From the NCBI GenBank assembly GCA_937892155.1, contig CALAUG010000060.1:3931-67930 (forward strand): DNA of 64,000 nucleotides, given 5' to 3'. The notes below the pieces were generated by a model that saw only the letters and a program-made list of their open reading frames with translations, was not told where the DNA came from and did no database searches. Below are positions 1 through 9,058 of the stretch, piece by piece. A program made the translations under genes and the position numbers. How positions within the stretch are numbered: the stretch's first letter is position 1; every line of letters starts with the position of its first letter. Source of the DNA: an uncultured Bacteroidales bacterium (GTDB lineage: Bacteria; Bacteroidota; Bacteroidia; Bacteroidales; UBA1715).

Positions 1-431
1 TTGAAACATTCGGCAAACGACCAAGGCTGAATGTTGTTTCTGCCAGTAGAGAGAGAACTCCAGTCGGTATAGCTTGGAGAGAAACGAAGTTCAATTTCTT
101 TTTTGAGCAGATTTAAAAATATTTCATCAGGAATGGTAGAATCCCCATAAAAGACATGACAGGTTAAATCGGATTCATGCCCAGTTCGAAGGTAATCAAT
201 ATAATCAAGAATAACGCCACGGACAGTGCCTTCGCTCATTTCTGGGTGATTGTCCTTCATATCGTTAATTAGGGGCATCAAATCAATGTCGGCATGAAAA
301 GCGACAGCCAGTTCAACAAGTTTTTGTTCAATTGAGAGCGATTCAGATTCGTAACCAAAGTTGTCAAAATACGTACGAATTGATTTGTGCAATTTTGGAT
401 TGCCATCACGGTAATAAGTAGTTGTTTCCAT
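1..431 (-). CDS. hypothetical protein, N-terminal part only (gene runs off the left edge)
   Basis: ATG at 431..429 on the minus strand with an open frame down to base 1 (METTTYYRDGNPKLHKSIRTYFDNFGYESE...). It is absent from the ORF track because there is no stop in the window. No family recognised. Confidence 0.5.
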   Translation of the reverse strand, partial: METTTYYRDGNPKLHKSIRTYFDNFGYESESLSIEQKLVELAVAFHADIDLMPLINDMKDNHPEMSEGTVRGVILDYIDYLRTGHESDLTCHVFYGDSTIPDEIFLNLLKKEIELRFSPSYTDWSSLSTGRNNIQPWSFAECF

Positions 432-518
432 ATCTGTTGTTTTTATTTACAGATACAAAACAAATGTGACACTGGGCAAAAAGTTGGGACAGTATATAAA
501 AACAAAGATTTTTTTTAT

Positions 519-1112
519 TTATATCTCAATTATTCTCGGTGAATATTTGACCTTATAATGATTGTCAACGATAGCACTATTGGAATAGATTGTTTTACCT
601 ATTGTTATCATTCCATATGAGTTGTGATCGTGTCCAAAAAGATGAAGTTTTGGTTTTATAACTTTCAGTCTATCTGACAATTCCGTACTACCGAAATGTA
701 CGCCACATGTACTATCCAAAATATCGTATGGCGGTTGATGAGTAATTAAAACGTCCACATCTTTTGGAATATTGGCAACAACTGCGGGATATTTATCGTA
801 CATAGCGTATTCCATAAACAATGGAACACCCCAGAATTTTATACCATCAATTACAATTCCCTCTTCTCGTAGATAATGAACATCGTCGGGCAGACCGTCT
901 ATGCCACCATCGTATAGGCACATATCGTGGTTTCCAGCAACGGCAATTTTGTGTTTGTATGGCAAATCGCAAAACCATTGAAAAAAATCAAGAACTTCGT
1001 CCTCGCTTCCGCCCATTGAAAAATCTCCCGAATGTACAATAACATCAGCTTCTGGCATATCAACCAATTGTTTGTGAAATCCGTGTGTGTCTGAAATGTG
1101 TAATATCTTCAT
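519..1112 (-). CDS. small calcineurin-like metallophosphoesterase
   Basis: 197 aa with the ordered metallophosphoesterase motifs ISDTHG (DxH), HSGDFS (GD), AGNHDM (GNHD) and FGHDHN (GHxH). Confidence 0.85.
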   Translation of the reverse strand: MKILHISDTHGFHKQLVDMPEADVIVHSGDFSMGGSEDEVLDFFQWFCDLPYKHKIAVAGNHDMCLYDGGIDGLPDDVHYLREEGIVIDGIKFWGVPLFMEYAMYDKYPAVVANIPKDVDVLITHQPPYDILDSTCGVHFGSTELSDRLKVIKPKLHLFGHDHNSYGMITIGKTIYSNSAIVDNHYKVKYSPRIIEI

Positions 1113-1121
1113 AATTAATAT

Positions 1122-1199
1122 CTACTTTATTCTATCTCCGCAAAATTCTTTTCTACCACAGTTTTTGCAATGTGATTGATATTCCCAATATATGTCTAA
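1122..1199 (-). pseudogene. 3-prime remnant of a second PLD/HKD-nuclease gene
   Basis: The minus strand reads ...YWEYQSHCKNCGRKEFCGDRIK-stop. The intact PLD-like gene ends ...LWMGSHCAKCGRKEFCGDRIK-stop. 25 nt are identical (1130-1154 = 2443-2467) with flanking similarity. The HKD-encoding part is missing. Confidence 0.6.
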
Positions 1200-1242
1200 C
1201 ATTCATATCACTTATCTTAGTTTGCTTCCATACTGAAGTTTG

Positions 1243-2283
1243 TTAGTCTGTTTTATACGTACCATTTTTCCCCTTTGCCAACATTTTCACGTTATTAATC
1301 TCTTTCACAAGTTGCTCCGTGGTTGGAAGATAAAGTTTATACTCGCTCGTAAGAATCGTTTGATTATTTTCGGGCAATGCCATTTTTACGACAGTATCGT
1401 TTTTGTCCGTACATAACAATATGCCTATTGAAGGATTTTCATCGGGTAATTTTTCAGTACGGTCGTAGTAGTTCACATACATTTGTAATTGACCTAAATC
1501 CTGATGAGTGAGTTTACCCGTCTTGAGTTCAACAATGACAAAGCATTTTAATAATCGATTATAAAAAACAAGGTCAACAAAGAATTCATCATCTTCCAAA
1601 AGAATGCGTTTTTGCCGTGCAACAAAAGTGAATCCATTGCCCATTTCCAAAAGGAAATCCGTAATATGTGTGATGATAGTACTTTCAAAGTCTTTTTCGT
1701 AATAGGATGGTTTACAATCCAAACCCAAGAATTCCAACACCATAGGGTCTTTTATAATTTCTTGTGGTGTTTCTGGAATCCTTTCCTTGCGTGCCACAGC
1801 AAGTACTGCTTCTTTGTCGTTACTTAACAAAAGCCGTTCATACAATTGGCTGTTGATCTGACGTTCCGTCTCTCGTGCCGTCCATGCATGATTCACCGAT
1901 TCCAACTCGTAATATTCCCGTTTGTCGGGATCATCAATGGAAATCAACAATTTATATTGACTCCAGTTTAATTGCGTCCGCACTGTGGACGCAATTGGGT
2001 AAATTCGATAAAATTGTCTTGCTCGTTCCAGTTGTCGCACGCCAAATCCGCTTCCATATTCGGCTTCCAAATTTTCGGCAAGAGTTCTGACAATATATGC
2101 ACCATAATCGGCTCTATCCTTCCCTTGTTGTTCTTCCTCAAATATCCTTCTGCCTAAGTTCCAATACATTTGTACACGGCAGAAATCAACACTTCGTACA
2201 GCGTTTGCTCGAGCATTTTCAATAATTGTTCGAGCGTCTTCAATCAATGCGTTTTGTGGCATTTTACCATGATTAGTTTTCAT
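1243..2283 (-). CDS. PDDEXK nuclease domain protein, YhcG/DUF1016 family
   Basis: 346 aa. The N-terminal signature (ARANAVRSVDFCRVQMYWNLGRRI...YGAYIVRTLAENLEAEYGSGFGVRQLERARQFYRIYP) and the C-terminal D...ELK nuclease core (FFVDLVFYNRLLKCFVIVELKTGK) are typical of the DUF1016 family. Confidence 0.85.
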   Translation of the reverse strand: MKTNHGKMPQNALIEDARTIIENARANAVRSVDFCRVQMYWNLGRRIFEEEQQGKDRADYGAYIVRTLAENLEAEYGSGFGVRQLERARQFYRIYPIASTVRTQLNWSQYKLLISIDDPDKREYYELESVNHAWTARETERQINSQLYERLLLSNDKEAVLAVARKERIPETPQEIIKDPMVLEFLGLDCKPSYYEKDFESTIITHITDFLLEMGNGFTFVARQKRILLEDDEFFVDLVFYNRLLKCFVIVELKTGKLTHQDLGQLQMYVNYYDRTEKLPDENPSIGILLCTDKNDTVVKMALPENNQTILTSEYKLYLPTTEQLVKEINNVKMLAKGKNGTYKTD

Positions 2284-2434
2284 TTTCTTCGTATTTTATT
2301 TCTCAAAAGTGTGCAATTTTTCGCCTCTTGTGGTCTGAAATGCGAAAAACTTTAAAGATATGCAACTGTATATCTTTTGTGTAAAAATAGGAAAAATCAC
2401 TGATATAGGGAAGAGTATATAGAAGATTATTAGT

Positions 2435-2950
2435 CTATTTAATTCTATCTCCGCAAAATTCTTTTCTTCCACATTTGGCGCAATGCGAGCCCATCCATAG
2501 TGTGTCGAATTGGTTGATAGCAGATTCCACTAATTGAGGATCGTTGGTAAGGATTCCTGCTTCGAAATTTCTTCGCAATGAACTTTTCATTCCGATTCCA
2601 GCTCCTGTAAGATTTGCCGAGCCAATGTATGCAGTTTCTAAATCAAAAATCATCAGTTTAAAATGCACGCGTGGGCAAAGCACTCGTTCCAACGCAGATG
2701 CAAGAATTGGGTATTTATCAAAATCCTCTCGAAAATTCGGTCCTGGTTCTTTTGCGTGAATCAACCGAACGCCAACGCCCCGTTTGAGCAAGCCTGCGAT
2801 TTGTCCCAACAAAGGAATTGTTTCGTTCCCCTGTTTCACATACAAATCTTTTATGTCGGCCGTACCAATCCACAATGTTTCGTGCACCGAAGCAATTCTG
2901 GAAATCACCTCGGTGTAGTGCTGTTCGTTGGAAATATATTGGGTGAACAT
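2435..2950 (-). CDS. phospholipase D-family protein with a single HKD motif (Nuc-like nuclease)
   Basis: 171 aa with HKD motif HFKLMIFDLETAYIGSANLTGAG and a Cys-rich tail CAKCGRKEFCGD. Its start lies 11 nt after the higA stop. Confidence 0.8.
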   Translation of the reverse strand: MFTQYISNEQHYTEVISRIASVHETLWIGTADIKDLYVKQGNETIPLLGQIAGLLKRGVGVRLIHAKEPGPNFREDFDKYPILASALERVLCPRVHFKLMIFDLETAYIGSANLTGAGIGMKSSLRRNFEAGILTNDPQLVESAINQFDTLWMGSHCAKCGRKEFCGDRIK

Positions 2951-2961
2951 TAGAATAAATC

Positions 2962-3327
2962 TTAAACTCCAAGAACAATATTTGCATCAATGTCCATTTC
3001 CTTACAAATTTTTCGTGCAACTTGCAAAGTCGGCTCGCAACGACCATTAAAAATATCACTAATGCGAGAAGTGCTAACGCCCAACAATTTAGCCAAACGC
3101 ACTTGATTAAGCCCCATTTCGTACATACGAAGTTTCATAACATCAACCAATTGCGGTGATTTAATCGGGAAATGTTCATCTTCGTATTCGGCAACCATTT
3201 CCGAAAGCAAATCCAATTCAACAGAATTCTTATCGGTAAGAGGGGTCTCGTCCGTCACCAATGGTAACAGTTCTTCAATACGTGCCATAGTTGCTTCGTA
3301 AGCCTCTTTTGTCTTAATTCTTGTCAT
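2962..3327 (-). CDS. higA: HigA-type antitoxin / XRE-family HTH regulator
   Basis: 121 aa. The C-terminal HTH (MGLNQVRLAKLLGVSTSRISDIFNGRCEPTLQVARKICKEM) sits directly downstream of a HigB-like toxin gene. Confidence 0.8.
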   Translation of the reverse strand: MTRIKTKEAYEATMARIEELLPLVTDETPLTDKNSVELDLLSEMVAEYEDEHFPIKSPQLVDVMKLRMYEMGLNQVRLAKLLGVSTSRISDIFNGRCEPTLQVARKICKEMDIDANIVLGV

Positions 3328-3335
3328 AACACCTC

Positions 3336-3629
3336 CTATATATTTTTTGCATCAATCGTATCGTATTCAGCATGTGTTCCTATAAAACGAATCAACACCA
3401 ATCCAATCGTGAATTTAATCACCACAATCAAACGATAGTTATTCCCTCTTATATTGAACACATAATGTTGATTACCAACGGCATCGACTGTCCGAAAAGT
3501 TTTCTTTATATCATCAAAGCAATACCATTCTGCGTTTGCCGTCTTTTTATACCAGTCTTCCAAAGCGGTTTCCGCATCGGGATGTTTGGTATAATACTCT
3601 ATTATTTTACTGCGTGCTATAATTCTCAT
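3336..3629 (-). CDS. higB: type II toxin-antitoxin system HigB-family toxin (RelE-like mRNA interferase)
   Basis: 97 aa. The sequence MRIIARSKIIEYYTKHPDAETALEDWYKKTANAEW...NNYRLIVVIKF...IRFIGTHAEYD fits the HigB toxin family pattern, and the toxin-first gene order is typical of higBA. Confidence 0.85.
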   Translation of the reverse strand: MRIIARSKIIEYYTKHPDAETALEDWYKKTANAEWYCFDDIKKTFRTVDAVGNQHYVFNIRGNNYRLIVVIKFTIGLVLIRFIGTHAEYDTIDAKNI

Positions 3630-3631
3630 TA

Positions 3632-3656
3632 TGTGTTATTTTGTAACACAAAACTA
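3632..3656 (-). promoter_or_regulatory. higBA promoter -7 box overlapping a palindromic putative HigA operator
   Basis: Perfect inverted repeat TGTGTTA-N5-TAACACA at 3632-3650, immediately upstream of the higB ATG (3629). The minus-strand TAGTTTTG box (3649-3656) matches the Bacteroides TAnnTTTG consensus. Confidence 0.5.
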
Positions 3657-3743
3657 CAAACAAATTTTAATTTTCAAAATTATTTTTTGAAAAACAAAAC
3701 CATATACTGCAATGAATATCAAAAAATGAAAAAAAGATTCATC

Positions 3744-4832
3744 TTAAATTTGATTTAATTTTTCTTTTATCTCTTTTAATTCCACGACAATACCATCCAC
3801 AACCTCACCATTGTATTCTTTGAAAGTTTTTGTTCCCAGCCACACGTCATTGTTCACAATATCATAGCCATACTGTTTTAATATGTTTCTAATTTCATCA
3901 GCATAAGAATAACTATTGGTGGAATATTTCCCCTTGTAATTTTTATGTCTGATGGCAACATAACCAGGTTTTGTGTGAGAAACTGTAAATTCAAGATCAT
4001 TTGTTAATTCATAATGTTCTGATTTATTATTATACATTTTAAAAACATTACGATTTTTAAATGTATCTGCGATTTCTTTATTATTTACAGACATTATTGA
4101 GGCTTTAGATTTTCGATTTTGAAATGCTTCTATATACATGCTTAAAGATCTAACAAAATCATCTTTTGACATTTTTGGGGTTTCCGTCAATAATTTTATA
4201 CCATGAGCTACTAAATCCATTTCTTCATGAGTATAAAGTTTACTAGTATGGGGAATTCCAATCAATAATGTATTATCAACCCATGATCTAAATATTTCAC
4301 CAGGAATCATGCATTCAATAGAGCATGCATAATTTTCACAAATTGTGTTTATAGAATCTTTACCTAAACAGAGCATAATCTTAGGAGACAACGCCCTTAT
4401 GAAGCCTTTAGTTACATTTGCACAATCATCAAAAGCCTTGCGAGGAAGATTTGATATTTTGGGAGTATCTAACCAAACAACATTGGACCACACATACCTT
4501 TTTTCATCATTTATTATGTCCCCCATTTGAACTCTAGAAAGAATAGAATTCAATAGTCTCCACATTCTCCATTTTCTATGGTCTGCATAATAAGGATTTC
4601 CTGAAAGAAAAGTCTCTATATCCACATGACCTTTGTATACTCCACCAGAACCTGGATTTAATCCCATCACCAACAACTCTGGTGTACTTGTAACATTTCG
4701 TAAATTTGATTGTGTATAAAAATTATTTTGATACTTATCCCCCAATTCATTATAGATTTCTAAGGCACCTTTATTTGATTGAGTTCCCAATGCCCACTCT
4801 CTTATTTTTTCCTGAATACTGTTTTCGTTCAT
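3744..4832 (-). CDS. uracil-DNA-glycosylase-fold protein (MUG/TDG-like GLNPG motif) with an extra C-terminal domain of unknown function
   Basis: 362 aa with the UDG-fold elements in order: LLVMGLNPGSGG (aa 53-64, motif A), VWSNVVW (aa 114-120), KIMLCLGKDS (aa 151-160) and LLIGIPHTSKLY (aa 189-200, motif-B-like His). About 130 aa of unassigned C-terminal sequence follow. The start is 5 nt after the upstream stop. Confidence 0.6.
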   Translation of the reverse strand: MNENSIQEKIREWALGTQSNKGALEIYNELGDKYQNNFYTQSNLRNVTSTPELLVMGLNPGSGGVYKGHVDIETFLSGNPYYADHRKWRMWRLLNSILSRVQMGDIINDEKRYVWSNVVWLDTPKISNLPRKAFDDCANVTKGFIRALSPKIMLCLGKDSINTICENYACSIECMIPGEIFRSWVDNTLLIGIPHTSKLYTHEEMDLVAHGIKLLTETPKMSKDDFVRSLSMYIEAFQNRKSKASIMSVNNKEIADTFKNRNVFKMYNNKSEHYELTNDLEFTVSHTKPGYVAIRHKNYKGKYSTNSYSYADEIRNILKQYGYDIVNNDVWLGTKTFKEYNGEVVDGIVVELKEIKEKLNQI

Positions 4833-4837
4833 ATCTT

Positions 4838-5395
4838 TTATTTATAATTTTCAAATATAAAATTATTCTTTATAACAACATAACTGATTCTCGTAGGGAT
4901 AGTTTCTCCATTAAAATAGTTAAAGTAGTTAAACAAAAAGTCCACACACTTTGGAAAACTTGCCCGTATCGTATCCATAATTTGTATTCCTTCTTCCCAA
5001 TCTCCTTGATCTTCAGAATTACGTATGACCACTATCATTCGACAATTTTCTTTCAATAAATTTTCAGGTATGGCATCAATAATGGTTTGTGCCACAGAAT
5101 TCCCTGTTGCGACACCTATAAAATCTGCTTTGTGACATACAGAAGAATCACCAAGAAGGAATCGTTTCACATCTAGATAATCCATATCCACAAGACCTAT
5201 TTTTGTCGCACAATACCATATATCATCTGCTATGATTTTTTTTATAGGATCAGAAATTGCCTCAAAATCATTTTCTCCTAATACGCAAGCAATCATTGGC
5301 TTTAAGGCATTTAAGACCTGATCTTCATTTTTATCTGTTTCACCTTCAATTAAATCCAACCGATTTTCGTGTTCTATTTTGTCCATGGTTTTCAA
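4838..5395 (-). CDS. FtsZ/tubulin C-terminal-domain-like protein lacking the GTP-binding domain
   Basis: 185 aa. GLVDMDYLDVKRFL resembles the FtsZ T7 loop/H8 segment GLMNVDFADVRTVM, GVATGNSVAQTIIDAI resembles GVASGEDRAEEAAEMAI, DTIRASF resembles NTIRAFA, and RISYVVI resembles RVTVVAT (E. coli FtsZ recalled from memory). There is no GGGTG(S/T)G signature. The start may be 5395, 5386 or 5296; the first two overlap the upstream AAA gene. Confidence 0.5.
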   Translation of the reverse strand: MKTMDKIEHENRLDLIEGETDKNEDQVLNALKPMIACVLGENDFEAISDPIKKIIADDIWYCATKIGLVDMDYLDVKRFLLGDSSVCHKADFIGVATGNSVAQTIIDAIPENLLKENCRMIVVIRNSEDQGDWEEGIQIMDTIRASFPKCVDFLFNYFNYFNGETIPTRISYVVIKNNFIFENYK

Positions 5396-6485
5396 TATTA
5401 TAGTTAAAAATTTCGGCTAAAGTCATAGGTTCAAAATCACCATCAACGTGATATTGTTTGTGCATCAACGCAGTTGTTTTTTCCTTGGTAAGTTTACCAA
5501 ATTCGTACTTATCTGTCAAGCGACCTTTACGAAGTAATGCTTTATCAATTCGTTGCACGTTGCTATTGAATGTACAGATGAATTTGAGGTTGAGACTGTC
5601 GCCCAACAAACCGTCTGCCATATTCAAAATATTTACCAAACCCGTATTTACGCAATTATACGAATCGCTGCGATCGACAAGCAACTGCTCGCAATCTTCA
5701 ATTACAACTACAGCATCTTTCAGTTCGTTGCAAATAAATGTTATCATTCGAGGATCGGACATACCCGACGCCATATCAAGAGGTAGATATACAAAATGTT
5801 TATTCGTAACAGAAATTAAGTGTCGGATATATGATGTTTTACCAGTGCCTTGTTCTCCGTGCAAAATCACCAAGCCGTTCTTGTCTGTTTCTAAAAATGA
5901 ACGAATATTCGCATCGACTGGTACAAAATCATCGTTATACAGCAAACTGATATCCATATCAGCGATAGGTTTTATCGCCATATCTTTTAGATAATATCGT
6001 CTATCATCAAAACCAATACATTCAATTTTTGATTTCTGAGTGTGAGACTTTTTACAAAAAATATGGAATGCATTGATGAACGATTCGCACCATTTCTTGC
6101 TTTTTGCATTTTGCAGTTCATACACACACATCACAGCATTGTATTCTAGAAAAACGAATATTTGTTTTTCTGTATTCTCAAAGAAATGATAGGTATTTCC
6201 ATATTGCCATAACTTGTTATTGGATAAAGAAATTTTTCCATCTCCTTCATTTGCATCAGATTCTTCTACCGAATTGATATGTTCGAACCCAGCTTTTTTT
6301 AGTGTATTAAACAGACAAGAAACATCTGCATTATCATCACCTTCAAATTCATAATTGTATTTAAAGCTCGAAGGGATTTTACCATATTGCAAAGCAAATA
6401 ACTTTTGGGCGAAACAATAACAATCTCCATATCTTTCAGATACAAATAGTCGTGTGCTGTTTTCTTTAATTATGTTTTCTTTCAT
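5346..6485 (-). CDS. classical-clade AAA+ ATPase (BCS1-like) with an unassigned ~200-aa N-terminal domain
   Basis: Walker A GEQGTGKTS, Walker B VVVIEDCE (ED as in BCS1), sensor-1 CTFNS, and Arg-finger region DKALLRKGRLTDKYEF. The start is placed at MKENIIKEN (6485); the track start 6533 adds 16 implausible residues. Confidence 0.85.
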   Translation of the reverse strand: MKENIIKENSTRLFVSERYGDCYCFAQKLFALQYGKIPSSFKYNYEFEGDDNADVSCLFNTLKKAGFEHINSVEESDANEGDGKISLSNNKLWQYGNTYHFFENTEKQIFVFLEYNAVMCVYELQNAKSKKWCESFINAFHIFCKKSHTQKSKIECIGFDDRRYYLKDMAIKPIADMDISLLYNDDFVPVDANIRSFLETDKNGLVILHGEQGTGKTSYIRHLISVTNKHFVYLPLDMASGMSDPRMITFICNELKDAVVVIEDCEQLLVDRSDSYNCVNTGLVNILNMADGLLGDSLNLKFICTFNSNVQRIDKALLRKGRLTDKYEFGKLTKEKTTALMHKQYHVDGDFEPMTLAEIFNYNIENHGQNRTRKSVGFN

Positions 6486-6559
6486 TGTATTTACATTTAG
6501 TATTTTCCACAAAAGAAAATATAGCTTAGGCAAAAAACTTGCACAGCAAAATGTTTTTC

Positions 6560-6596
6560 AAAAAAAATCCCCAACCTCGGGAGAGATTTGGGGGAA
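6560..6596 (-). terminator. putative rho-independent terminator after the 260-aa UDG-like gene
   Basis: The minus strand reads CCCCAAATCTC-TCCC-GAGGTTGGGG followed by ATTTTTTTTG, 24 nt downstream of the stop at 6621. Confidence 0.5.
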
Positions 6597-6620
6597 ATTC
6601 CTTTTATGCGAGAAAATCTA

Positions 6621-7403
6621 TCATACGTTAAAGGAGAGTCTTAACTGTTTTATTCGATCTATCAACGGGGAATAATAGCTCTTATCAAAGTTTTTTCTTA
6701 CTGCAGCAAAATGCCACATATCAAACAATGGTATTTCTTTATCATCTCCTACCTTTAAATTATAACTACTAACATCTTCTCCATATAAATAATCAGAATA
6801 CTCCCCTAACACTTCAATTTTTTCTGCGCCAAAGTTCATAGTAATGATTACATCTGGATCAAGCAACTCTATCTCTTTATTATAGAAATTGCATTTTTCA
6901 TTTTTTGATGCCAAAACAAAACGATTTATTAAGTTCCAATCGGACTTCCACCCCCCACTCTCATTACTGAATTTAGAGAGATTCATAAAGGCAAAACTAA
7001 CACCCTTGTTTGTAGCAAAATCATCTGCGATTTCTGATGCCCGCGGCATATCATGATAACATTTACACTCTGGTTGATGCAACAAACCATATGTTATATA
7101 GAACATTCTATTATGAGTGTTAGCTCTATTCAAAGGAATCTTACCAATTTGTTTATATTCCTTATAAGCAGGATACATTACATCTATAAAATTTTCACCA
7201 TTTAATCCCAAGCATTCCCTCCCGACAAACAGAATCTTTATTTTTTGGTTGGTATAATATGGATAAAAGCCATCCTCTACAAAGTATTTAACAGGTGCAG
7301 TATTATCATTAGAAACAATTGACGATTTCCATTCATCAAACAACATCTCTAACTTATGCTGTAAATCTTTTTCCGTTTGCAAGGTATATATATCTAATTC
7401 CAT
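6621..7403 (-). CDS. divergent uracil-DNA-glycosylase-fold-like protein
   Basis: 260 aa with the order and spacing of UDG-fold elements: KILFVGRECLG (aa 55-66), FAFMNLSKFSN (aa 137-147), DVIITMNFGAEK (aa 184-195) and LFDMWHFAAV (aa 226-235). The motifs are degenerate, so the assignment is tentative. Confidence 0.4.
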   Translation of the reverse strand: MELDIYTLQTEKDLQHKLEMLFDEWKSSIVSNDNTAPVKYFVEDGFYPYYTNQKIKILFVGRECLGLNGENFIDVMYPAYKEYKQIGKIPLNRANTHNRMFYITYGLLHQPECKCYHDMPRASEIADDFATNKGVSFAFMNLSKFSNESGGWKSDWNLINRFVLASKNEKCNFYNKEIELLDPDVIITMNFGAEKIEVLGEYSDYLYGEDVSSYNLKVGDDKEIPLFDMWHFAAVRKNFDKSYYSPLIDRIKQLRLSFNV

Positions 7404-7446
7404 AATAAAAACACTTTATCCGTGTCGTGCGCAACGTTGATTATTA

Positions 7447-8100
7447 TTAACAAATATTATATATACAATCAAATTCTTTACAAAACAGACTTGCTCCTCC
7501 ATGAGATGGATGACGAACATATCTAACATTAGGGAACAGAGGTTTTAACACTCGCTCTGCTGTTTTCCCTACAGCATATACTTCTTTTATGTTAAAATAT
7601 TCCAATAAATTCTGAAGAATTTTCAATCCATATTCACATTCTTTTTTTGAAGGTGTTCTATTAGGGCGTAACGACGAAATCACTACCGTAGAATCAACAG
7701 TACTTGGATGGAAAGGGAATATGTTCCACATTAATGGATATTCTTTTATTGGAATTTTATTTAAACATTTCCACACAACCTGAGCTGTTGATTCTTTTTC
7801 GGGAATAAAATCAGGAATATCACTCATACAATAATCCAATCCTTCAAAAAAATTATTTTTCATTATAGTATATTCATCCGTAAATGGAACGCCAGAAATA
7901 AAACACCCTTTATGTCCTGGAGCCTCTCCAACAAATAATTTAGTAGGATTTATCTCTTGCATTTTCCTCAAATATTTTCTTAAATCTCGTCTGCGTTGAA
8001 CAGCAGCCATAGAATCTCCCTTATAGATATTAAGACTATTCTGTGTCGGAGGGTTTAAATCCTTAATATCAAGTATAAATTTTTCAACTTTTTCTATCAT
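7447..8100 (-). CDS. uracil-DNA glycosylase family protein (family-4-like GEAPG / HPS motifs)
   Basis: 217 aa with LFVGEAPGHKGCFISGVPFT (motif A with family-4 spacing to GxPF), MWNIFPFHPS, VYAVGKTA and VRHPSHGG (motif B). Confidence 0.75.
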   Translation of the reverse strand: MIEKVEKFILDIKDLNPPTQNSLNIYKGDSMAAVQRRRDLRKYLRKMQEINPTKLFVGEAPGHKGCFISGVPFTDEYTIMKNNFFEGLDYCMSDIPDFIPEKESTAQVVWKCLNKIPIKEYPLMWNIFPFHPSTVDSTVVISSLRPNRTPSKKECEYGLKILQNLLEYFNIKEVYAVGKTAERVLKPLFPNVRYVRHPSHGGASLFCKEFDCIYNIC

Positions 8101-8269
8101 GATAAATTATAATTTTATTTGTCACTCAAAACCATAACTCCTGCAAAATCAGAGAACTTTTGCTTAGTTAATGATAAATCCACCAAGATTTCCCTTTGTT
8201 ATGCAATAGCTTTAAAAACATTTATCGGTCTTTGATACCGCAACGACCGATGTGGTCTTTTATTATTAT

Positions 8270-8899
8270 AAAAATAGATTTAGTCTGTGCACATTTTTTT
8301 TTATTTGACCACAAAGGTAATAGAAAATCCAATCCTTTACAATCCTTTCAAATATTCTTCCACTATTGGATAAATAGCAGTTTTTAAACAATTCTATATC
8401 AACATAATAATCAAAATCTTTATGTTTATCGATCCAATATCTATTATTGGTTTTTATTGCGTAAAATTCTTACATTGTTCGTGCAAAACATTCACATGTT
8501 CTGCCTCTATATCTCCTTCTATTTTCTGGGACAGGATTCATATTATTTCTAAACAATTCTGCCAAAACACGTTCCTTCGAACCAGGTATTGAAGATGCAT
8601 TTTTATAGCGTGATTCTTCTATTGTTCGAATTCAATCAAGGAAATGTGCCAATTCGTGAACAAATACACAATCTAATATTTCGTGTATATTTTTTCTTGT
8701 GTCATACAACGAAATGGAATTCGGAGAAAAATCACCAAGTTTCCTACGGTTTCATTTGTCATTCAAAAACAAATCTAATCATATTGTAGTATGGTATCTG
8801 TCATACATTTGCCATAGAACAAAATCGCTTTTGACAAGCATGCCTCAAATCTTCGTACTGCAAATTATTTTGCAACCATAGATCAATTTCTTTCATCAT
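8270..8899 (-). pseudogene. decayed HExxH zinc-metallopeptidase-like gene (SprT/ImmA/DUF45-like), multiple frame disruptions
   Basis: Minus-strand fragments lie in three frames: MMKEIDLWLQNNLQYEDLRHACQKRFCSMANV-stop, EILDCVFVHELAHFLD-stop (HExxH), IRTIEESRYKNASSIPGSKERVLAELFRNNMNPVPENRRRYRGRTCECFARTM-stop, and YWIDKHKDFDYYVDIELFKN.... No intact ORF of 60 aa or more is present on that strand. Confidence 0.4.
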
Positions 8900-8980
8900 C
8901 TGTAATTTTAAAAGTTCTTTTCGACAAAAGAAAAGCACTACTGTGCAAAAATTTGGTAGAGCCCCCAAAATAATTTGTGA

Positions 8981-9028
8981 TAAAAGAGTAAAAAAAAGAG
9001 TAACCTCTTTTTCTGAGATTACTCTTTT
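8981..9028 (-). terminator. putative rho-independent terminator downstream of the glutamine synthetase gene
   Basis: The minus strand reads AAAAGAGTAA-(15 nt loop)-TTACTCTTTT followed by TTTTACTCTTTTA, about 30 nt after the stop at 9059. Confidence 0.5.
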
Positions 9029-9058
9029 CAGTTATTAATTCGAATTTCTAATTAATCA

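Follow-up and report, generated by a model that had tools for sequence, protein, structure and literature searches.

Why should an island of anti-phage genes carry one half of a cell-division protein? The question is raised by a 64,000-nucleotide (nt) stretch of DNA from an uncultured Bacteroidales bacterium (GenBank assembly GCA_937892155.1, contig CALAUG010000060.1, positions 3,931 to 67,930), analysed here as a whole and referred to as the window. An open reading frame (ORF) on its minus strand, at 4838..5395, had been described in a sequence-only reading as a stand-alone C-terminal (T7-loop) domain of FtsZ without the GTP-binding domain. This description is borne out by ORF calls, by structure search and by colinear alignments with hhalign, hmmsearch and BLASTP, and we regard it as secure that the ORF encodes an intact, stand-alone homologue of the C-terminal half of FtsZ, with equivalents of H6-H7, the T7 "synergy" loop, H8 and S7-S10. 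We refer to this protein as the C-half. The case for its homology rests on the accord between the sequence statistics and the structure search, each of the sequence statistics being weak when taken alone.

A stand-alone C-terminal half of FtsZ

When a profile of the 31 full-length family members was compared by hhalign with an FtsZ alignment, columns 57-182 were paired with FtsZ 200-318 at P = 6e-4. The FtsZ alignment consisted of six sequences entered by hand; the stretch from M. jannaschii matches the PDB alignment. In the resulting register G67-L68 fall on G204-L205, D70 on N207, D72 on D209 and D75 on D212, which confirms the two retained aspartates and the change of N207 to Asp that had been proposed by eye; the five alignment blocks proposed along with them were all recovered, colinear and in the same register. 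BLASTP against E. coli FtsZ (a sequence likewise entered by hand) aligned residues 44-116 with 182-251 at E = 0.003 and placed residues 44-64 on FtsZ 182-202. Among 177,635 distinct PDB sequences the family profile matched only M. jannaschii FtsZ (E = 0.48), and the hmmsearch alignment, of profile positions 49-168 with residues 225-337, runs from the T7 loop to S10. An FtsZ hidden Markov model (HMM) run on the six-frame translation of the window and 18 loci picked out, almost without exception, C-half proteins and members of an N-half family introduced further on, and placed each on the proper half of FtsZ.

The AlphaFold2 (AF2) model built from the 31-sequence alignment (pLDDT 73, pTM 0.72, with pLDDT above 70 in just one of the five models) consists of two helices, a loop, H8 and a beta-alpha-beta-alpha-beta-beta unit, an order equal to H6/H7-T7-H8-S7-H9-S8-H10-S9-S10 of FtsZ. 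In a Foldseek search of 350,542 PDB chains with this model, the best 50 matches were all FtsZ (E 1.4e-5 to 5e-4, probability 1.00, 130-170 aligned columns). Among viral predicted structures the best match was a phage tubulin at E = 3e-3, followed by generic RusA-like alpha/beta proteins, and since the viral tubulin match is weaker than those to FtsZ in the PDB, the C-half is closest to FtsZ proper. Profile databases were silent: none of the 31 members matched Pfam FtsZ_C (PF12327), Tubulin or Tubulin_C at E <= 10, and no model of Pfam, NCBIfam, PHROGs or PADLOC v2 matched the C-half or its 31 relatives. Of the profile and structure comparisons by which the sequence-only reading had proposed to judge the homology, then, the Pfam FtsZ_C match failed to appear and the structural match was strong and exclusive to FtsZ. 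Sub-threshold matches of the C-half to Imm31, SSXT and DUF7750 were judged to be noise, and weak Mob1 matches (phmmer with the single sequence against the PDB, E >= 0.16) were dismissed as chance.

The gene has two start options, a TTG at 5395 giving 185 amino acids (aa) and an ATG at 5386 (MDKIE...) giving 182 aa. The ATG is the likelier start, and a 99% identical copy in contig L001 is called from the ATG with MDKIE; residue numbers used here follow the 185-aa version. Residues 21-64 (5204..5335, minus strand) form two helices equivalent to FtsZ H6 and the core helix H7 according to AF2 and BLASTP, and within the family this segment is both the best conserved and the one modelled with most confidence (helices 21-38 and 50-64, pLDDT 92-94). 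The T7 loop and the start of H8 follow at 5168..5203 (minus strand), as located from the translation and the hhalign register, with the sequence KIGLVDMDYLDV against RPGLMNVDFADV in E. coli FtsZ. Two of the three catalytic T7 positions are kept, those of D209 and D212, but not that of N207, whose equivalent is Asp (D70) in the window protein and variable elsewhere in the family. Residues 92-176 (4868..5122, minus strand) correspond to the sheet and helices of the FtsZ C-terminal domain, S7-H9-S8-H10-S9-S10, by AF2, Foldseek and hmmsearch. The protein ends 9 residues past S10, and the linker and the C-terminal tail peptide are both missing.

The C-half thus contains every element of the FtsZ C-terminal domain, namely H7, the T7 loop, H8 and then S7-H9-S8-H10-S9-S10. 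It is like the C-terminal (GTPase-activating) domain of PF12327 in fold, in element order, in its colinearity from H7 to S10 and in its Asp pair, but differs in sharing only 13-22% identity with FtsZ, in having no N-domain, linker or tail, and in lying in a defence island and not in a division cluster. The ORF begins at the H6/H7 equivalent, and the Rossmann-like GTP-binding domain with its GGGTG(S/T)G motif (T4 loop), which full membership of the FtsZ/tubulin family would call for, is absent from it. The lack of this signature, noted earlier for the ORF and its flanking genes, holds for the whole window, in which neither GG[GA]TG[STA]G nor an N-domain-like ORF was found. Nor does the protein resemble a bona fide division FtsZ: the disordered linker, the FtsA/ZipA-binding C-terminal peptide and the location in a dcw cluster are all wanting, and the neighbouring genes encode an AAA+ ATPase, UDG-like proteins, HigBA and a PLD nuclease rather than dcw products.

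The family is very small and is known solely from ruminant-gut Bacteroidales. The gene was found in 4 of 185,579 species-representative genomes, all of them metagenome-assembled Bacteroidales genomes from the guts of buffalo, yak and sheep, and metagenomes gave five further loci. An exhaustive HMMER search of 1.84 billion representative proteins returned two true distant relatives, along with spurious repeat proteins (P0005 and P0006) that were set aside; a word-indexed search with the C-half returned near-identical copies alone; and a profile search for the family gave 36 clusters, all stand-alone and without informative annotation, the source names of the entries being "hypothetical protein" only. 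Full-length relatives range from 158 to 208 aa (n = 31 aligned), each with its own start, while five entries of only 95-130 aa are apparently incomplete. Sixteen residues are invariant in the 31 proteins: I35, A36, L39, E41, E45, A56, W60 and K65, and also D72, D75, V76, F79, L80, K89, E135 and L154. Copies from different subfamilies share 26-50% identity, and pairwise dN/dS (the ratio of nonsynonymous to synonymous substitution rates) is mostly 0.16-0.34 for pairs with unsaturated dS, indicating purifying selection on the family. None of the marks of a pseudogene (truncated ORF, missing start, relaxed selection, full-length intermediates) was seen.

Two variants of the family deserve mention. 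A divergent C-half paralogue of 156-157 aa (E ~1e-11 to 1e-14 to the family profile) occurs at L004:3255-3725 (+) and L014:204-677 (+), where it opens the island and is followed by a 192-aa gene and a PLD nuclease gene. In P0034 (185 aa, on a 660-nt contig) the last ~30 residues of a C-half are swapped for the C-terminal tail of a Bcs1-like AAA+ protein (MFEPMTLAEIFN...), apparently through an in-frame deletion that fused the C-half and AAA+ genes.

A second half-FtsZ family and the layout of the islands

Clustering of the neighbours in 12 related loci brought out a second recurring small protein of ~188 aa, an unannotated stand-alone FtsZ N-terminal-domain family that we call the N-half. It is exemplified by L009:14156-14722 (+) and is also present in L002, L005, L007, L008, L011-L014, L016 and L020-L025. 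Set against the motifs of FtsZ, it has LLLAVGDGAINIV for IKVIGVGGGGGNAV, NCLGGDDDLT for AGMGGGTGTG, FPFSFEGNSR for KPFNFEGKKR and FFNDD for IPND, followed by an H7-like helix. Its GTP loops are degenerate, with GDGA for GGGGG and GGDDD for GGGTGTG, and the T3 loop is gone; from the order of the secondary-structure elements, the whole H2-S3-T3 unit would appear to be lacking. By hhalign the N-half matches FtsZ 98-197 at P = 2.9e-4, and with its AF2 model (pLDDT 82, pTM 0.80) the best 50 PDB matches in Foldseek were all FtsZ, at TM 0.6-0.68 over ~200 columns. The family comprises 56 clusters, nearly all of 175-193 aa, together with a few shorter partials and one weak 224-aa match, and its dN/dS is 0.10-0.40. 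No fusion of N-half to C-half was found among the 56 N-half and 36 C-half clusters, 5.8 billion clusters having been searched. Neither half had a relative among IMG/VR viral contigs, INPHARED phages or PLSDB plasmids, all of which were searched for both, and neither had a match to a known or candidate defence protein in PADLOC v2.

A second, more FtsZ-like N-domain paralogue of 206 aa is encoded at L005:13089-13709 (+), with GLEGKTGAM for GGGTGTG and a match to Pfam Tubulin (E 1.1e-7, 32.7 bits, cutoff 33). Its gene is followed directly by an MreB-like gene and then by that of the N-half. The MreB-like product is a divergent actin homologue (Pfam MreB_Mbl 3e-68), encoded at L005:13717-14748 (+) and L011:15331-16356 (+), and its gene ends 5 nt before that of the N-half, so that the islands of L005 and L011 carry derivatives of both bacterial cytoskeletal families.

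The two halves are linked in the genome. Starting from the C-half, an N-half gene was found on the same strand and 0.2-9.3 kb away in 9 of the 12 distinct loci with enough flank; starting from the N-half, a C-half gene was present on the same strand and in the same range of distances in all four distinct loci; and the two seedings together show the linkage in 13 of 16 informative loci. The pair occupies at least five chromosomal contexts (RuvX/SOD, OTCase-CPBP/GcpE, gyrB or dCMP deaminase/aspS, RelA, and others) and comes in two layouts. One reads C-[small gene]-[PDDEXK_4, ABC ATPase, ADP-ribosylglycohydrolase (ARH), UDG-like ...]-N, and the other N-113aa-[McrBC or GmrSD]-AAA_14/DUF4143 (PADLOC PDC-S01)-C. 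In both, the half-FtsZ genes adjoin housekeeping genes and bracket a variable block filled with defence genes. A compact form, N'-113aa-C-N, is seen in L016 and L017. More broadly, the C-half recurs in islands of anti-phage defence genes: its gene is surrounded by genes for McrBC, GmrSD, PLD/DrmC-like, PDDEXK_4, PDC-S01, PDC-S02, HigBA, WYL and UDG-like proteins in more than 10 loci.

The 113-aa protein contains three Asp-box/BNR-like repeats (L012:5144-5485, +; equivalents in L004, L008, L014, L017 and L020-L023). In one island type it always follows the N-half, and it is 91-98% identical across loci, far above its neighbours. Neither its gene nor the AAA_14 gene is present in the window. A mirror-tree correlation of the N and C identities (r = 0.60, 9 pairs) was discounted as evidence of interaction, being confounded by shared ancestry.

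The cassette and the defence island in the window

In the window the C-half gene is the middle one of three. Upstream lies the gene for a classical-clade AAA+ ATPase (5346..6485, minus strand; 379 aa from the ATG; Pfam AAA 1.1e-9) with an N-terminal ~200 aa of unknown fold and PDB matches to Afg2, Rpt3 and Bcs1 (E 2e-7 to 7e-6). Its 3' end overlaps the start of the C-half gene by 41 nt, from which it is probable that the C-half is translationally coupled to the ATPase and plausible that the two products are physically linked in this cassette. The ATPase matches phrog_14322 and is 33% identical over 82% of its length to an AAA+/BCS1-like ATPase of PA5oct-like jumbo Pseudomonas phages (L019, phage MIJ3), where the neighbouring genes are all hypothetical. 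Downstream, 5 nt past the C-half stop, begins a gene for a 362-aa protein of the UDG superfamily (DNA-glycosylase-like; 3744..4832, minus strand; Pfam UDG E 9.5e-5, under the gathering score), which has an additional C-terminal domain of unknown fold and homologues in L001, L007, L009 and L012, as well as a fragment in L004.

Most of this block (3884..6571, minus strand) is shared with contig L001 at 98.4% nucleotide identity by blastn, and in L001 it adjoins McrBC instead. A terminator-like hairpin with a T-run at 6568..6584 (minus strand) bounds the cassette on its upstream side, at the point where the shared block ends, and splits the cassette from a 260-aa gene. The shared block with its different neighbours and the hairpin at its edge imply that the AAA+, C-half and UDG-like genes are a discrete cassette that moved between islands. 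No repeats flanking the cassette were found in a direct-repeat search for island att sites. A sigma-70 promoter scan gave fewer sites than in shuffled sequence and was set aside, as the model does not apply to Bacteroidetes.

The island that holds the cassette spans about 1..8968 on the minus strand, as judged from Pfam, PADLOC and the gene map, and continues past the start of the window. That the C-half gene lies inside it supports the conflict-system context in which the gene had been placed from its sequence. A glutamine synthetase gene precedes the island. The strong terminator-like hairpin that follows this gene, with a 15-bp stem and a T-run (8993-9029, minus strand), marks the upstream boundary, and the island begins downstream of it. 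Reading inwards, with all genes on the minus strand, there is a remnant of the 192-aa gene (8380-8896), frameshifted and in three pieces of 52-67% aa identity. In L004 and L014 the 192-aa gene precedes the PLD nuclease gene, and in the window ~5.4 kb of other genes, the cassette included, lie between the remnant and PLD. A UDG family-4-like gene follows (7447-8100; Pfam UDG 8.7e-9), and then the 260-aa unknown (6621-7403), which stands between the two UDG-superfamily genes; its equation with a recurring 270-aa island gene was not convincing (E 0.015). Among anti-phage enzymes, glycosylases of the UDG superfamily form an established class (Brig1, PMC11078745; bioRxiv 10.1101/2025.10.29.685425), and the two such genes in this one island may possibly encode Brig-like anti-phage glycosylases.

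Beyond the cassette come a HigB toxin and helix-turn-helix antitoxin HigA (2962-3629; Pfam 9e-32 for HigB and 3e-11), a PLD nuclease that matches the PADLOC DrmC models (2435-2950), a DUF1016/YhcG protein equal to PDC-S02 (1243-2283; PADLOC 6e-140) and a metallophosphoesterase (519-1112). A 55-nt direct repeat (85% identity; 1121-1175 and 2434-2488) duplicates the 3' end of the PLD gene across the DUF1016/YhcG gene, and looks like the footprint of the insertion of the latter.

What the half-proteins may do

Each GTPase site in an FtsZ filament is completed by the T7 loop of the adjoining subunit, the Asp residues of this loop activating hydrolysis. The C-half keeps an invariant T7 loop and, beyond the C-terminal half, no other part of FtsZ; the most economical reading is that this face still docks on a pocket face. 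We tentatively favour the proposal that the T7 face, with its invariant Asp pair, would dock onto the face of an FtsZ-type N-domain that bears the nucleotide pocket, much as one subunit does onto another, that in most genomes the partner would be the co-encoded stand-alone N-half, and that the pair would serve as a regulatory or adaptor switch. As each half carries one longitudinal face, an N-C pair would be a closed heterodimer and would form no polymer. Such a dimer would act as a non-filamentous switch or adaptor tied to the neighbouring defence genes and not as a cytoskeletal element. The N-half has GGDDD in place of the glycine-rich phosphate loops, which makes GTP hydrolysis unlikely; more speculatively, its acidic loop might bind a cation or imitate phosphates. 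For the window protein the partner may be the AAA+ ATPase, an N-half past the window edge, or host FtsZ.

A doubtful extension of this proposal would have the N-half (its GGDDD mimicking nucleotide), the C-half and the 113-aa protein form a closed non-polymerising module that marks the ends of a hot-swappable defence slot, either as a sensor or switch or as a lock of the toxin-antitoxin type. In the lock version each half would neutralise the capping of host FtsZ by the other, and the island would be stabilised in this way.

Several observations weigh against docking onto a dedicated N-half. The window C-half is the most divergent member of its family, with 26-33% identity to the rest, its near relatives being solely L001 and one fragment. 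No N-half was found in the window with the family HMM (filters off), the FtsZ HMM, jackhmmer or phmmer with the second N-like paralogue, and L004 and L018 have none within 8-10 kb, so that a C-half can exist without a nearby partner. Moreover, a detectable N-half is missing in three of the four islands with a Bcs1-like AAA+ ATPase (the window, L001 and L004); L016 has both. The pocket of the N-half (GGDDD) and the T7 loop are both acidic, and docking would thus need a bridging cation or ligand. H6-H7-like helices are present in both halves, which is not what a simple split of one gene would give; the co-occurrence of the halves could come partly from the shared ancestry of related islands; and the genes between them include autonomous systems, McrBC and GmrSD, that need no extra parts. 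As to the window itself, the island leaves it just 4.8 kb downstream of the C-half, less than the usual N-C distance, and an N-half beyond the edge is possible. The metallophosphoesterase and DUF1016 proteins of the window were looked up as a means of extending it leftwards, and neither is on record.

It is unlikely, in our judgement, that the C-half instead acts directly on polymerising host FtsZ or on a phage or plasmid tubulin (PhuZ/TubZ), although it might plausibly do so by capping the nucleotide-exposing filament end or by forming dead-end GTP-hydrolysing heterodimers, with division arrest or a disrupted phage cytoskeleton as the outcome. The catalytic Asp pair is kept and invariant, the window protein resembles FtsZ unusually closely in its T7 segment (KIGLVDMDYLDV vs RPGLMNVDFADV), the window contains no cognate N-half, ARC3 (discussed below) lends support, and fragments of the FtsZ interface are dominant division inhibitors in vivo (preprint 10.1101/2023.12.19.572389), these being artificial 30-mers, unlike the natural C-half. 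Direct action would also have the same outcome as the cappers SulA, MciZ and MipZ (MipZ: PMC9897490), one longitudinal interface being blocked, although these proteins, unlike the C-half, are not homologous to FtsZ. However, the rest of the family has a candidate dedicated N-half partner, and given this linkage the T7 face is no less likely to target such a partner than host FtsZ. Conservation is also lacking at the position of N207; the genes appear to be constitutive and chromosomal, and a free FtsZ capper would be toxic unless regulated; and for phage tubulins in particular the structural matches are worse than for FtsZ (best viral E 3e-3). An altogether different use of the fold, as no more than a scaffold, in which the C-half would serve the AAA+ ATPase or the UDG-like protein as an adaptor, a regulator or a substrate and its conserved acidic loop would have a new role, also seems to us an unlikely explanation. 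It would fit the 41-nt overlap and the 5-nt gap, which suggest coupling, the travelling of the three genes as a block, the recurrence of AAA+ homologues in the C-half islands of L004 and L016, and the want of an N-half in the window; classical-clade AAA+ enzymes, moreover, often use small adaptors. Yet most family members have no such AAA+ neighbour, the invariance of exactly the catalytic T7 Asp pair would be hard to explain, and the N-half linkage would be left unexplained.

Quite improbable is a decoy or guard function, in which the half-domains would mimic the FtsZ surfaces hit by phage division inhibitors or by FtsZ-modifying interbacterial toxins, and the attacker would be neutralised or the adjacent effectors (AAA+, nucleases, glycosylases) triggered. 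The genes do lie in defence islands, both faces of FtsZ are present as separate copies that do not look enzymatic, and the copies have diverged rapidly, to 26-50% identity between subfamilies. An ARH gene (Pfam 3e-70) just downstream of the C-half (L007:11953-12981 and L009:11097-12125, both +) recalls immunity of the Tri1 type; the ARH-type immunity protein Tri1 reportedly acts against the FtsZ-ADP-ribosylating toxin Tre1. Nevertheless, the idea is wholly inferential, the family has Glu at the position matched by eye to R174, the residue that Tre1 targets, and dN/dS gives overall no sign of positive selection. Least of all do we credit the C-half as a relic, the leftover 3' piece of a disrupted ftsZ-like gene, which we disfavour to the point of setting it aside. 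A separate N-half-like gene in related islands does superficially resemble an interrupted gene, but all full-length relatives have intact ORFs with their own starts and dN/dS is ~0.2-0.3; the proposal in the sequence-only reading that homologues elsewhere might simply be 3' fragments of disrupted ftsZ-like genes is refuted by these intact stand-alone ORFs and the purifying selection on them. The splitting of a single ftsZ-like gene by the insertion of an island was rejected for like reasons, namely the occurrence of both gene orders (C...N and N...C), H6-H7 in both halves and purifying selection. With both orders, H6-H7-like helices in both halves and no fused full-length form in 5.8 billion clusters, the pair is not one broken gene.

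For docking between an N-half and a C-half there is a biochemical precedent. The isolated N and C domains of FtsZ studied by Oliva, Cordell and Lowe in 2004 are said to fold independently, with the activating T7 loop supplied by the C-terminal one; those were laboratory constructs of one gene, whereas here the halves are natural, separately evolving genes with kilobases between them. The closest analogue for how a half-FtsZ might work is ARC3, an inhibitor of chloroplast division in plants. Its FtsZ-like domain is a non-GTPase in which an N-terminal-like part is fused to other domains, within a eukaryotic Min system. ARC3 keeps the N-terminal-like part, in contrast to the window protein, which is a C-half alone and stands in a defence context. 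TubZ and PhuZ are full-length polymerising GTPases; like the C-half, they belong to the tubulin/FtsZ superfamily outside the division machinery. Natural shortened copies of FtsZ are likewise found in the Hyphomicrobiales, as FtsZ1 and FtsZ3 of Agrobacterium, and overexpression of Agrobacterium FtsZ1 inhibits division (bioRxiv 10.1101/2025.09.29.679267). The same study presents these paralogues as duplications of the "FtsZ GTPase", so that they keep the GTPase domain and none consists of the C-domain only. The closest natural cases, these paralogues and ARC3, keep the GTPase-like half. Full-text searches of the literature brought up no account of an FtsZ homologue reduced to the C-domain, of FtsZ halves encoded by separate genes or of defence-island proteins derived from FtsZ, and a survey of the FtsZ/tubulin family published in 2023 (PMC9871819) uses none of the terms "truncated", "partial", "lack" and "C-terminal domain". 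The C-half is a new protein within a known superfamily, and the two-gene arrangement that brackets an island has no counterpart in the literature found.

The family is rare and confined to uncultured rumen bacteria, which tempers its significance, although it should come as a surprise to those who study the cytoskeleton and to those who study immunity. Naming both halves would allow the annotation of ~90 protein clusters. The confinement of the halves to defence islands, where they enclose swappable restriction and glycosylase genes, suggests a new form of immune regulation or sensing, a link between immunity and division, or a new mechanism of island maintenance. FtsZ and tubulin are defined by head-to-tail polymerisation, and if the proposed docking of N-half and C-half is true, evolution has dismantled the filament interface into a two-protein module. 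A closed dimer would then reduce the FtsZ longitudinal interface to a minimal natural model, in which GTPase activation could be studied without polymerisation. It would also give the first instance in which the longitudinal interface of tubulin and FtsZ has been put to use outside a filament, and the first component of an immune system derived from FtsZ.

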